This document shows, piece after piece, positions 9,632 through 19,934 of a DNA stretch of 27,872 nt. The notes below the pieces were generated by a model. The model was not told where the DNA came from, did not search any database, and saw nothing but the letters and a program-made list of their open reading frames with translations. Both the position numbers and the translations under genes were made by a program. The stretch's first letter is position 1; the number at the start of each line of letters is the position of its first letter. The stretch is from an uncultured Thermoplasmata archaeon (GTDB lineage Archaea > Thermoplasmatota > Thermoplasmata > Halarchaeoplasmatales > Halarchaeoplasmataceae): assembly GCA_964399335.1 (NCBI GenBank), contig CAYNQI010000013.1, positions 1 to 27,872 on the forward strand. Reading direction: 5' to 3'.

Positions 9632-10348
9632 ATGAAAGTTGAAATCACCTATATTATCCACAGCTGTTTCACGGTTGAATTCGACGATAGAGTTTTACTA
9701 TTTGATTATCCAGGTCGAAGTTTTTCAACTAAAAGAACGAAGAAACTTGTTGAATCCAAATTGAATGACAAAACAGCGTTAATATTATCTTCTCACTCCC
9801 ATGGAGATCATTTCACCCAAGATGTATTTCAGTTCCAGAAAGCTGCATCACAGACAATTTTCGTACTCTCTGACGACATAGCTATCAGTAGAAATTCAAT
9901 CCCTTCGAACTTTAAAATGATCGGACCTGAAGAAGAGATCACAATTGAAGGTATTTCTATAGAAACCTTTGAAAGTAACGATGCCGGAGTGGCTTTTTTC
10001 TTAACCTATCGAGATAAGAAGATATACTATGGGGGGGATCTAGCTAAGTGGGATTGGCCTGAATGGAGTTCTTTAAAACAGAAACAGCATGTAAAAGTCT
10101 TTGAAGATGTTCTCGACATATTAAAAGATAGAGGAGTCGATGTGGCCTTTTCCAATATGGACGAAAGATTGGAATCCTGGGCCGGACCCTTAGACTTTAT
10201 CAGAACTCTAACTCCTAGATATTTTGTTCCTATGCACACTTTTGGTAACGAGGAATGGATCGAGGATTTAATGGATGAGGATATCCCTTCAAAGACCAAT
10301 ATTTTCAATTACAAAGAGATCGGAGATTCCGTTGAATGGAATATCTAA
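9632..10348 (+). CDS. MBL-fold metallo-hydrolase
   Basis: HSCF, SHSHGDH, GDL and PMH motifs. Confidence 0.85.
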   Translation: MKVEITYIIHSCFTVEFDDRVLLFDYPGRSFSTKRTKKLVESKLNDKTALILSSHSHGDHFTQDVFQFQKAASQTIFVLSDDIAISRNSIPSNFKMIGPEEEITIEGISIETFESNDAGVAFFLTYRDKKIYYGGDLAKWDWPEWSSLKQKQHVKVFEDVLDILKDRGVDVAFSNMDERLESWAGPLDFIRTLTPRYFVPMHTFGNEEWIEDLMDEDIPSKTNIFNYKEIGDSVEWNI

Positions 10349-16980: not shown

Positions 16981-17343
16981 TCATTTGAAAGTCCTGCAAT
17001 CAGTGCAGTAATAACTGTCATAACTCTTTTTATAAACAAGCTCTGATCCACATTCATCACAGACCTTCTTTTTACCTAGGATCTTATCGAAGAAACTTAC
17101 TTTCTTACCGGTTTTCTTCTTCTGTTCATAATCTATATCAGCCAAGCTGTATGTTTTATCATCCTCTTCGTCCTCTATCTCCACTCGTTTTTTATCTTCA
17201 TACGGACTTGAACTTTCAGAATATTTGTGAGATATGTAAAAGATCGCTACTAAACCAGCTAGAAGCATTATGAACCCACAGCATGCGTATGCGGCAAGTT
17301 GCAACATTAAATATGGTGTTTGGTTTGTTACAAGATATATCAA
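16981..17343 (-). CDS. Single-TM membrane protein with C-terminal zinc ribbon
   Basis: Hydrophobic segment, acidic linker and CDECG-x11-CTDC; TTG start. Confidence 0.7.
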   Translation of the reverse strand: MIYLVTNQTPYLMLQLAAYACCGFIMLLAGLVAIFYISHKYSESSSPYEDKKRVEIEDEEDDKTYSLADIDYEQKKKTGKKVSFFDKILGKKKVCDECGSELVYKKSYDSYYCTDCRTFK

Positions 17344-17487
17344 ACGACTTCACATCCTGATGGGTCATCAACAATATATGTAAAAAATCTTTCTATTGGA
17401 AAAAGTATTTTGATGGATAAAGGATAAATATCGTTAGACAGGTGAAACCTCTTGAAAGATAGAGATCATATAGATGAATGATATTTA

Positions 17488-17958
17488 ATGAATATAAAAA
17501 AATGTTTGACGGTATTTATCTTCGTTCTTTTATCAGTTTCTATATTTTTACCTGGAGTGGCTTCTTCTAAAGAAATCTTTGACGATCCTGGTCGTGAGGA
17601 GCATGAATTAAGACTTAAAATAGATGGGTCAGGTATAGTTAATTATGATCCAGATGCTGAGGATATTAACGAGTTAGAGGAAGAGTGGATATTCACTTAC
17701 AGGAACGGTACCGAGATAATTCTATTCGCTGAACCCCGAGAAAACTGGGAGTTTGTAGAGTGGCGAGGAGATAAAGAGGGTAAAGAAAGGAACATCACTT
17801 TCCATATAGAAGAAGATATAGAGATAACTGCGGTTTTTGAAAATGACGTAATAGAACCGGAATCAACTCCAGGATTTAAATCACCCTCTATTATAATCGC
17901 TGTGATGATCTCGATAACTATTTTTGAAAAGTTGAGAACGTTAAAGATAAGAGAATAA
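17488..17958 (+). CDS. Secreted surface protein with InlB-B-repeat-like domain and PGF-CTERM-like tail
   Basis: Signal peptide; Y.NGTEIIL.AEP.ENWEFVEWRGD..ITAVFE; then TPGF, a hydrophobic stretch and a basic end. Confidence 0.7.
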   Translation: MNIKKCLTVFIFVLLSVSIFLPGVASSKEIFDDPGREEHELRLKIDGSGIVNYDPDAEDINELEEEWIFTYRNGTEIILFAEPRENWEFVEWRGDKEGKERNITFHIEEDIEITAVFENDVIEPESTPGFKSPSIIIAVMISITIFEKLRTLKIRE

Positions 17959-17987
17959 ATTATCTTCAATTCAATATACCGGTCTAT

Positions 17988-18319
17988 ACTGTTCAGAGGT
18001 AGAGAACCCCACGGTTCTACTGTGGGGGTGAATACCGATAGTAAGTTATATACCTCCCCATCATATGTATATCTGTTAGTCGAGATGACCTCTCGGCGAC
18101 TTGGTTCAAACTAGCGGTAGGTGTCCGCTTTAACAAAAGTAAGCACGAACCATCTACCGACGTAAAACGAGATAACTCAGAGTCCTCACGGATAAGAGTA
18201 ACGGTAGCGTGGCACTGCCTTCGCCCGTCGGTCGTAACCCTTAGATGACCAAAGGGACAGTATGTTTTCATCCTGTCGGTAGGGAAGCCCCACGGCTCTG
18301 CCGTGTGGGAGGATGTCAC
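17988..18319 (+). mobile_element. Non-autonomous IS200/IS605-family (IS1341/tnpB-derived) miniature element, 332 bp
   Basis: Left-end hairpin 18007-18028 and right-end hairpin 18288-18309 share sequence with covarying stems. The right end GAAG-hairpin-AGGATG-TCAC mirrors IS608 GAAT-hairpin-AGTATG-TCAA. Removing 17988-18319 restores an in-frame stop for the interrupted protease. Confidence 0.88.
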
Positions 18320-18339
18320 CTGGTTTTCTTATTTTTACA
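18078..18339 (+). ncRNA. Candidate TnpB omegaRNA (reRNA/sotRNA) scaffold plus flank-derived guide
   Basis: TATA-like TTATATA (18046-18052) inside the element, several stems, the right-end hairpin and a T-rich 3' flank. Inferred, not demonstrated. Confidence 0.4.
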
Positions 18340-19934
18340 TAGATAGCGATTATTGTACCTATAATCATGATCCCAACTATAAAAAAGAACCACCACTCAG
18401 TTATGACAGGTATTATAGGCGACGTAGTTTCATCTGTACCATCATGATCATCATTAACGGATATTTGGAGTGGATCTGAGGTAGGTCCCTCACCGATTTC
18501 ATTTGATGCACTTAAAGTGTATGTAACTTGTCCAGATGCATCAAGGTCAGTAAAAACAGTTTCATCTGTTTCCCCTATCAATTCTCCATTCCTGTAAATG
18601 TTATATTTTGTTATAGGAGCTCCACCGTCGTCCATGGGTTCAGACCACTTTATTTCAACTTGCGGTTCTATAGAAACTATATTGACTTCTCTTACTTTAG
18701 AAGGTTCAACAGGAGATTCACGAGGTGTTAAATATATAGGTGTGCTGAAAGAACTCTCCCCGTGAACGTTTGAAGCAGTTATTTTGTATGTGTATGTTAC
18801 TTCGTTGTTAACTTCGGTATCCACATATTCTAGTGTGTCCGGAGAAAGATCCGCGATGATCTCTAAGTCATCGTTGGAGGAACGGTAAAGATCGTATCTT
18901 TCTATAGGATCTAGACCATGAAAACGTGGTGGATCCCATCTTATCTTAGTTCTTTCATCTTCTGAACTCCCTCTTACATTTTCTGGATGGGAAGGGACTT
19001 CAACTCCTGCAGCAAGATAAGCATTAACTAAACCGTATCCATAATAATCCGGATTCCCTAGGTCGATAGCCTGTTCATTGATCCTATCTCTTATTTGTCG
19101 ACCATCTAATCCGGGATTTGCTCCCATCATGATAGCCGCTGTACCGGCTACAAAAGGAGTTGCCATGGAAGTACCGATTTTATAACCATATTCACCACCG
19201 GGGATCGTCGAGAGGATTTTCTTATCCGTATCCCCTCCTGGTGCCGTAAGGTCTAACCAATCCCCATAATTACTGTAACCTGTTTTCTCTTTTTCATGAT
19301 CGACGGCTGATACGGCTGCGGTAGAATCATAGGCTGCTGGGTAATTCTCTGAATCTGTGGCATCGTTTCCGGCTGCAGCGGTCATATAGAGTCCATCGTT
19401 GTAAGCTTGATTCAACTGGATTTCAAAAGCACGACCCATAGGACTGCCATCCGCACCAAAACTCATCGATATGATGTCAGCACCGTTTTCCCTAGCGAAC
19501 CTTAACGCTTTAGACACTTCCTGCCATCTACCTCCTTTTTCCTCTATCACTTTTAAAGCCATAAGTTCAGCATCAGGAGCAACACTGGCTATTATACCTG
19601 CTACGTGAGTACCGTGCCCGTCATTGTCCATGGGGTCTTCATCATCATTCACAAAATCATAACCTATACCATCCCACATCTTATCTTCTAGATCCGGATG
19701 AGTGTAATCTATACCTGTATCTAAAACTGCGATCCTCACTCCTTCTCCTGTTTCACCTAGATCGTGAGCCAGATCGGCCCCGACCATCTTCCATGCCCAG
19801 TCATCACCCGGGTAGGGATATGTACTGTTGGATTGAATGGGATGTGAGGGTTCATGAGATTGTGCAATATTCAGACTGAGGATAGGCATCAATAGTAAAA
19901 TTGATATCAGAATAACAATGAATTTCTTATCCAT
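18186..19934 (-). CDS. Membrane-anchored S8 subtilase with two Fn3-like domains; last 44 aa derive from the inserted element
   Basis: Catalytic triad motifs VLDTGID, HGTHVAG and GTSMATP; signal peptide; C-terminal TM followed by KIRK. Confidence 0.92.
   Translation of the reverse strand: MDKKFIVILISILLLMPILSLNIAQSHEPSHPIQSNSTYPYPGDDWAWKMVGADLAHDLGETGEGVRIAVLDTGIDYTHPDLEDKMWDGIGYDFVNDDEDPMDNDGHGTHVAGIIASVAPDAELMALKVIEEKGGRWQEVSKALRFARENGADIISMSFGADGSPMGRAFEIQLNQAYNDGLYMTAAAGNDATDSENYPAAYDSTAAVSAVDHEKEKTGYSNYGDWLDLTAPGGDTDKKILSTIPGGEYGYKIGTSMATPFVAGTAAIMMGANPGLDGRQIRDRINEQAIDLGNPDYYGYGLVNAYLAAGVEVPSHPENVRGSSEDERTKIRWDPPRFHGLDPIERYDLYRSSNDDLEIIADLSPDTLEYVDTEVNNEVTYTYKITASNVHGESSFSTPIYLTPRESPVEPSKVREVNIVSIEPQVEIKWSEPMDDGGAPITKYNIYRNGELIGETDETVFTDLDASGQVTYTLSASNEIGEGPTSDPLQISVNDDHDGTDETTSPIIPVITEWWFFFIVGIMIIGTIIAIYVKIRKPGDILPHGRAVGLPYRQDENILSLWSSKGYDRRAKAVPRYRYSYP

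Follow-up and report, generated by a model that had tools for sequence, protein, structure and literature searches.

Within a 27,872-nucleotide stretch of DNA from an uncultured Thermoplasmata archaeon (contig CAYNQI010000013.1 of assembly GCA_964399335.1; hereafter the window), a 332-nt non-coding element occupies positions 17988–18319 between two convergent genes (plus strand, as are all features below unless stated otherwise). Judged by its ends and its copies, it is a discrete, multi-copy, non-autonomous member of the IS200/IS605 family, of the kind known as palindrome-associated transposable elements (PATEs). Among the copies, homology starts at TCTAT and stops at 18319, with the terminal sequence GGATGTCAC / GGGAGGATGTCAC, and the flanks are unrelated. 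Apart from the read-in tail of the adjacent protease gene, the sole open reading frame across the element is a 100-aa frame wholly internal to it (18017–18319, minus strand). We consider it almost certain that this PATE descends from a tnpB element and carries a guide-RNA scaffold of the omegaRNA type.

The pentanucleotide TCTAT (17983–17987) lies directly 5′ of the left end and precedes every copy retaining that end, whatever the flank. At one orthologous locus the empty site reads TCTAT|AAACAG (G003, contig C43), whereas the filled site reads TCTAT[element]ACACAG (G001, contig C20); the longer junctions are GATGATCTAT|AAACAGATAG and GATGATCTAT[AGTG...GTCAC]ACACAGAGAG, respectively. Element-free orthologues of the G001 site were also found in G004 (C41) and in the source genome itself (C38); for the copy in G005, the search for an empty site returned diverged intergenic DNA only. 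Because filled and empty orthologous sites can be compared in this way, TCTAT is assigned to the target DNA as the transposon-associated motif (TAM), the element to 17988–18319, and no target duplication accompanies insertion. An earlier annotation made from the letters of the window alone (the sequence-only reading) had taken TCTAT for the target motif, and both its position before all left ends and its retention at the empty site bear this out.

Each end carries a subterminal hairpin, at 18007–18027 on the left (CCCCACGGT-TCT-ACTGTGGGG) and at 18288–18309 on the right, where the terminus GGGAGGATGTCAC closes the element at 18319. The two hairpins lie in direct orientation and are 78% identical over 27 nt, and there are no terminal inverted repeats. 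Such paired direct-repeat hairpins are, by sequence, the signature of IS200/IS605 left and right ends. The features that define PATEs are all found here: subterminal palindromes, insertion at a motif without duplication, ends in common with full-length relatives, absence of a protein gene and presence in multiple copies.

The parent type is represented by a tnpB-only element of ~1.49 kb in G005 (contig C52, locus L025), which has the same TCTAT and is built around a 436-aa TnpB (P0003). Its left end (L025:53–107) is 94.5% identical to that of the window element, and its right end matches at 38 of 38 nt. P0003 contains OrfB_IS605 and Cas12f1-like TNB domains and can be aligned with TnpB and Cas12f proteins of solved structure. 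A glycine takes the canonical position of the RuvC-II glutamate (IAIGDLS / IGDL), and RuvC-III reads NADVN, in keeping with the ‘derived/rearranged’ TnpB clades (rearranged catalytic site; Altae-Tran et al. 2023), for which activity is considered probable (PMC10691335). In the window element, positions 18172–18223 hold a frameshifted TnpB C-terminal coding relic (ITQSPH / DKSNGSVALPS). It aligns with the P0003 C terminus (...ITQNPERDMSNGCVAQPS...), the source type of the trace, and with 84% DNA identity over 55 nt to the 3′ end of the intact tnpB gene. The resemblance to TnpB C termini noted in the sequence-only reading is thus a real homology, and that reading was also right to see a derivative of the IS200/IS605 family that has lost its nuclease: only a relic of tnpB remains, between ends held in common with full-length elements. 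We trace the window element to a tnpB-only insertion sequence of the IS1341 type in soda-lake Thermoplasmata. Close relatives of P0003 are intact in G005 and G064, interrupted by one stop codon in G012, split across contigs in G002 and broken in G020 and G019, and the exact P0003 protein occurs in a metagenome-assembled genome (MAG) from Cock Soda Lake and in a Kulunda sediment metagenome.

The 3′ part of the element (18168–18319) corresponds to an omegaRNA-type scaffold made of a tnpB 3′ end and the right end, as indicated by an Rfam match, DNA homology and shared helices. It comprises a closing helix (GAUA/UGUC), stem A (18175–18199), stem B (18203–18219), an added hairpin (~18256–18275) and the right-end hairpin. 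The Rfam family concerned is sot0042, a transcript that overlaps Halobacterium IS1341-type tnpB genes in sense orientation and is today regarded as their omegaRNA. Its model matches 18170–18286 with 22.4 bits (E 0.0033; gathering score 88) and is the sole Rfam match over 17000–19000 at E values up to 1. The tnpB-linked relatives score 72.6 bits (L025, E 4e-17) and 79.9 bits (L079, E 3e-19), just below the threshold, and L079 gives a weak HgcC match as well. At the DNA level, 18168–18225 and 18282–18319 are homologous to the tnpB 3′ ends of L025, L078 and L079. Stand-alone and tnpB-linked forms have in common the closing helix, stem A, stem B with its CGUGGCA loop, a GUAAACCUUAGAU box and the right-end hairpin; the stand-alone form has lost ~55 nt of the stem C interior, whereas it has gained the hairpin at ~18256–18275 and 90 nt at the 5′ side (18078–18167).

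Across the alignment with related tnpB 3′ ends, the shared helices (closing helix, stem A, stem B, right-end hairpin) have 95.3% of their cells paired, compared with 29–48% when the 3′ partners are slid. Changes on both sides occur at five pairs, and the covariation score was reached by 0 of 500 shuffles, although these sequences are closely related to one another and were themselves the source of the structure. Three self-complementary versions of different sequence are found for the distal part of stem A, and in stem B an A-U pair is swapped for U-A. TnpA needs the end hairpins only. Because stems A and B are nevertheless conserved, their retention supports constraint at the RNA level. Minimum free energy folding of the single window sequence was weakly better than that of shuffled sequences (z = −1.9). 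Both competing pairings listed in the sequence-only reading were recovered with a repeat finder, namely 18115–18123 with 18151–18159 (9 nt) and 18154–18161 with 18275–18282 (8 nt, perfect); CUACCG at 18154–18159 is able to pair with any of three CGGUAG motifs, giving alternative folds.

Upstream of the scaffold lies a box resembling a transcription factor B recognition element (BRE) and TATA box, AGTAAG-TTATATAC (18041–18054), with a predicted start near A18078, 25 nt further on. The motif singled out earlier, GTAAGTTATATA at 18042–18053, does stand 25 nt before a hairpin, GUCGAGA-UGACC-UCUCGGC, which begins at 18079. No copy has lost the box, not even the diverged L002, L027 and L029, and it resembles those upstream of the source genome's tRNA genes (GAAGCTTATATAAC, AGATTATATATC and AATATTTATATC), from which we infer promoter activity. 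It differs from the promoter sequence of the L025 tnpB gene. The proposal that the element had kept promoter and scaffold while losing the nuclease consequently holds in part: a sot0042-type scaffold does lie behind a promoter-like box, but the scaffold is remodelled, its match is limited to 22.4 bits and the box is not the parental tnpB promoter.

Between box and scaffold, the predicted RNA would begin with a 5′ module (18078–18167) in which the first hairpin (18079–18098) is followed by a strongly conserved block. No other segment of the element is as well conserved: identity is 92.8% among close copies and 85.6% against a diverged copy on contig C44 of the source genome. In the latter, identity is 100% over the box and over a 45-nt block within the module, and ~63–75% elsewhere. 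A 226-nt derivative (L027) lacks the module. We found no counterpart of it in the tnpB-linked scaffold and no covariation within it, and the Rfam search over 17000–19000 returned no ribozyme, intron or known small RNA for it. An origin as a tnpB coding relic was rejected, since the module does not align to the L025 tnpB gene and inspection of its frames revealed no TnpB-like peptides. An old duplication of part of the scaffold start may underlie the module, as hinted by repeats at a spacing of 87 nt; the local alignment lacks significance, however, with 62 of 1000 shuffles scoring as high, and a tandem duplication was rejected on this ground. A more diverged relative, L017 (G033:C57, ~9700–9912, minus strand), has a different end (GATGTACAC) and carries a hairpin like that of the 5′ module (CTACTTGGTTCAAAGTAG-CGGTAG) immediately before its ...TCGGTCGTAAACCTTAGAT box, which hints that the module of the window element may come from a second scaffold variant.

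Near-identical copies, a stretch of ~337 nt at 91–97% identity, are present in 7 of 60 related genomes, spanning four genera of one soda-lake Thermoplasmata family. Many are cut by contig ends, as a repeat would be, and at least ten distinct right flanks occur among them. When one genome per prokaryotic species was scanned with the 32-nt core of the 5′ module, matches were confined to eight loci, all in soda-lake Thermoplasmata MAGs. The source genome holds a second, old copy (the C44 copy, C44:1156–1415, minus strand; L002), 75% identical overall, flanked by genes for a phosphomethylpyrimidine kinase and an MgtC/DUF4010 protein; there GGATGTCAC is repeated, the second one ending 22 nt beyond the first right end. 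Terminal-only mini-elements of 56–57 nt were observed at four loci, L016 (G027:C123), L024 (G014:C52), L035 (G002:C107) and L033 (G014:C14), each composed of TCTAT, the 5′ part of the left end, one hybrid hairpin and the right-end terminus GGGAGGATGTCAC. This is the structure that recombination of one end hairpin with the other would be expected to yield, as in the 52-bp PATEs of Haloquadratum.

In omegaRNAs the sequence past the right end serves as guide. On this architecture, the would-be guide of the window element is its right flank at 18320–18339 (CUGGUUUUCUUAUUUUUACA), within the last codons of the minus-strand protease gene; the 20 nt past the right end (CTGGTTTTCTTATTTTTACA) occur once in the genome. 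Runs of T at 18324–18327 and 18333–18337 could mark the end of transcription.

On the basis of these observations, we propose, with confidence slightly better than even, that the stand-alone RNA is transcribed and used in trans for homing. The BRE/TATA-like box (18041–18054) would start a plus-strand RNA of ~240–260 nt near 18078, which would run through the scaffold into the flank and end in the T-runs past the right end, giving a guide of ~16–20 nt. A full-length relative would supply the TnpB, which would take up this RNA in trans and cut the ‘empty’ site, TCTAT plus guide, after TnpA-mediated excision, whereupon recombination would restore the element. Mobilization of the PATE itself would fall to a Y1 TnpA such as that encoded by an element with the terminus GGGAGGATGTCAC on contig C101 of the source genome. 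An RNA-only element that borrows TnpA and TnpB is an idea already published (PMC10055086, PMC10691335); PATEs often encode omegaRNAs (PMC10055086), and stand-alone omegaRNAs work in trans with compatible effectors (Altae-Tran 2021, as summarised in PMC10691335).

This C101 element (L004/L006) is complete and of the IS605 type, encoding a 135-aa Y1 TnpA and a 440-aa TnpB. Its terminal 13 nt (GGGAGGATGTCAC) are identical to those of the window element and L025 and its left end has a similar architecture, which makes it the likely transposase source for the PATEs of this genome. In its TnpB, too, the canonical RuvC-II glutamate is missing (FFGSPRYIR). The source genome further contains a degraded IS1341-type tnpB of another subfamily (C12:8428–8868, L003), in which the C-terminal 147 aa are in frame and the upstream frames are broken; sot0042 does not match at this pseudogene. 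An apparent TnpB match on contig C1 was rejected as a multi-zinc-ribbon protein.

Several findings weigh against homing by a borrowed TnpB. No P0003-like tnpB was found in the source MAG (G000), which at 80% completeness makes this absence no proof, nor in the element carriers G001, G014 and G023. The only intact TnpB of the source genome, that of the C101 element, is ~31% identical over 97 aligned C-terminal residues, and sot0042 has no match at the 3′ end of its gene. The window element itself scores far under the sot0042 gathering threshold, and the remodelling of its scaffold (stem C, the extra hairpin and the 5′ module) leaves the fit to a P0003-type TnpB unproven. The diverged C44 copy has lost both its left end and the 3′ half of stem A. 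By composition alone, we estimate that TTATATA is expected ~0.07 times per 332 nt. Finally, the copies are young, so that conservation of the interior may reflect recent spread alone. Of the seven genomes with near-identical copies, three do contain a close tnpB, be it intact, stop-interrupted or fragmented, a count limited by MAG incompleteness and by the loss of repeats from bins. The related tnpB that the sequence-only reading required in the genome or community is present with identical ends in sister genomes of the same soda-lake system, but its cognate form was not found in the source genome.

In an alternative that we regard as possible though rather unlikely, the element is an inert deletion derivative, akin to miniature inverted-repeat transposable elements and moved by TnpA alone; scaffold, box and 5′ module would then be leftovers or chance, and their conservation a result of recent amplification. 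Copies that are 91–97% identical have had little time to decay, stem C is lost and the sot0042 score is low, the cognate tnpB was not found in four of the seven carrier genomes, and the folding of the single sequence gives no more than z = −1.9. Moreover, the terminal-only and 226-nt forms demonstrate that the interior can go, and hence it may be dispensable for persistence of the element. However, the interior is as well conserved as the ends that transposition requires, and compensatory changes keep stems A and B, which TnpA does not need. The C44 copy must be immobile for want of a left end, yet its box and 45-nt block are fully preserved, and the promoter-like box persists in all diverged copies. 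In other archaea, comparable PATE RNAs are expressed: PATE-derived and tnpB-3′-end RNAs in Halobacterium salinarum, and PATE-derived RNAs also in Pyrococcus abyssi (PMC4615843).

A second alternative, which we judge improbable, retains a functional RNA but not homing. The transcript would be exapted or independent of TnpB, acting as a regulator or antisense RNA on flanking genes, for example at the 3′ end of the protease mRNA, or serving the element through its 5′ module. It draws on the finding that the best-conserved part is precisely the one without counterpart in tnpB-linked omegaRNAs, on the presence of the element in genomes where the cognate tnpB was not found, and on the alternative folds open to CUACCG; in addition, overexpression of a PATE-derived RNA improved the growth of H. 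salinarum (PMC4615843). Nevertheless, the RNA of every copy would end in a flank of its own, which suits a guide and not a fixed regulator. Across species, we found no locus with a conserved copy, the C44 type being confined to the source genome, the guide has no second genomic match, and the 5′ module shows no covariation. A domesticated, conserved locus of the TldR type was likewise rejected: among 42 genomes of the family, none holds a closer relative of the C44 copy, and a second target in the genome is lacking for both guides. It is similarly doubtful that the RNA-only element forms an independent lineage that has acquired a promoter of its own together with a strongly conserved 90-nt 5′ domain, which all tnpB-linked omegaRNAs found here lack, and that is spreading among genera of soda-lake Thermoplasmata. 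Persisting without a cognate tnpB, such a lineage would therefore have to use a non-cognate TnpB, for instance that of the C101 IS605 element, or have an RNA function independent of TnpB.

The genes flanking the element bear on the history of the locus. On the right, a minus-strand gene (18186–19934) encodes a membrane protease of 582 aa with subtilase and fibronectin-III domains (Pfam Peptidase_S8, 9e-50; fn3) and a C-terminal membrane helix. Its frame reads 44 codons into the element, so that the translation passes from ...YVKIRKPG into an element-encoded tail, and the same junction is present in the independent assemblies L057, L058 and L059. The convergent flanking genes, at 17488–17958 (plus strand) and 18320–18440 (minus strand), have similar membrane-anchor tails (...TLKIRE followed by a stop, and ...VKIRKP...). 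In the product of the former, a sorting signal of the PGF-CTERM type (TPGF with a helix) points to surface proteins that depend on archaeosortase. The flanking genes are also found in Kulunda soda-lake metagenomes.

The pairing of these two flanks is less secure than either junction. Four independent contigs with the left (PGF-CTERM) flank have three single-nucleotide polymorphisms (18051, 18055 and 18058) that are absent from the window, and one of them runs on into a response-regulator gene instead of the protease. Two contigs with the protease flank (L058 and L059) have two other left flanks, the element in L059 being identical to that of the window. The window thus probably joins its two flanks across the shared left end as a chimeric contig. 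That its junctions stem altogether from repeat collapse or mis-joining, with no insertion at the locus, is hardly credible on the same evidence, because each junction alone is reproduced in independent assemblies (left flank with left end in L052–L054 and L056, right end with protease in L057–L059) and the doubt concerns only the pairing of flanks, the element and its right-flank guide being real.

The assignment of guide and TAM does not depend on this pairing, whereas the reconstructed native C terminus of the protease does. Since other assemblies give three different left flanks, reconstruction of an ‘empty protease allele’ is unsafe, and the claim that the guide matches the uninserted protease allele could not be upheld. 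Searches of the family genomes with either flank gave distant paralogues only, a scan of one metagenome with the guide sequence found the filled site only, and exact-protein look-ups of both flanking genes led to contigs that end inside the element or are joined to other flanks. As no empty allele emerged from these flank, guide and protein searches, the native C terminus of the protease cannot be fixed.

PATEs and stand-alone omegaRNAs have been described before, and the window element is a well-documented example of this kind of element and not a new mechanism. What sets this locus apart is the lineage in which it occurs, a BRE/TATA-like box that is plainly evident, and a remodelled scaffold to which a conserved 5′ domain has been added. 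It offers a clean, well-bounded archaeal derivative of IS200/IS605 elements that retains a guide RNA only, with filled and empty sites, a TCTAT TAM and a full-length tnpB parent type. With its promoter-like box, the RNA could do without transcription and processing of tnpB. Should this RNA prove to be expressed and loaded in trans, Thermoplasmata would provide an instance of the modular ‘borrowing’ of TnpA and TnpB proposed for PATEs, and the remodelled scaffold would reveal which omegaRNA parts are dispensable to that TnpB clade. The repeat also gives a warning for annotation, as it scrambles contig joins in metagenome assemblies of soda-lake Thermoplasmata.

Among known systems, the stand-alone omegaRNAs of OMEGA systems, in the account given by PMC10691335, resemble the window element in being mobilised and in combining transposon ends with a guide scaffold but no effector or transposase gene. 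In both, the lineage also holds effector-bearing copies, and the guide is the flank past the right end. The activity of those RNAs in trans is, according to the same account, experimental, whereas the window element is known from its sequence alone; it differs further in its uncultured Thermoplasmata host, its remodelled scaffold and its extra conserved 5′ module. TldR guide RNAs likewise place a TnpB-type scaffold away from a mobile tnpB gene, but their locus is fixed, next to a nuclease-dead TnpB, and the promoter that they target lies elsewhere (PMC10705468). In contrast, the window element is mobile, has no adjacent protein and carries a guide without a second genomic match.

A further comparison is with the IS1341-type tnpB 3′-end RNAs, including RF02656 (sot0042), RF00062 (HgcC) and the PATE-derived, intergenic VNG_R0052 and VNG_R6334 of H. 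salinarum, which extend over the right-end hairpin (PMC4615843). Intergenic versions of these sense-overlapping transcripts (sotRNAs) that lack tnpB, as the window element does, are expressed in H. salinarum; whereas no classical BRE-TATA was found upstream of sotRNAs by the authors, the window element has a BRE/TATA-like box (PMC4615843). The PATEs of Haloquadratum walsbyi and Geobacillus stearothermophilus agree with the window element in several respects: they are too short for a transposase, have near-terminal palindromes without inverted repeats, insert without target duplication at a 5′ targeting motif of 4–5 nt and have ends in common with IS605/IS1341-type elements (PMC3119063, PMC10055086). 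Haloquadratum PATEs include terminal-only versions of ~52 nt as well as forms retaining C-terminal tnpB sequence (PMC3119063), and terminal-only PATEs arising when repeat-mediated deletion removes the core, known at ~52 nt, measure 56–57 nt in the window family (PMC3119063, PMC10055086). The window element is distinguished from those PATEs by belonging to another lineage and sequence family and by a recognisable BRE/TATA-like box that is placed to drive its scaffold.

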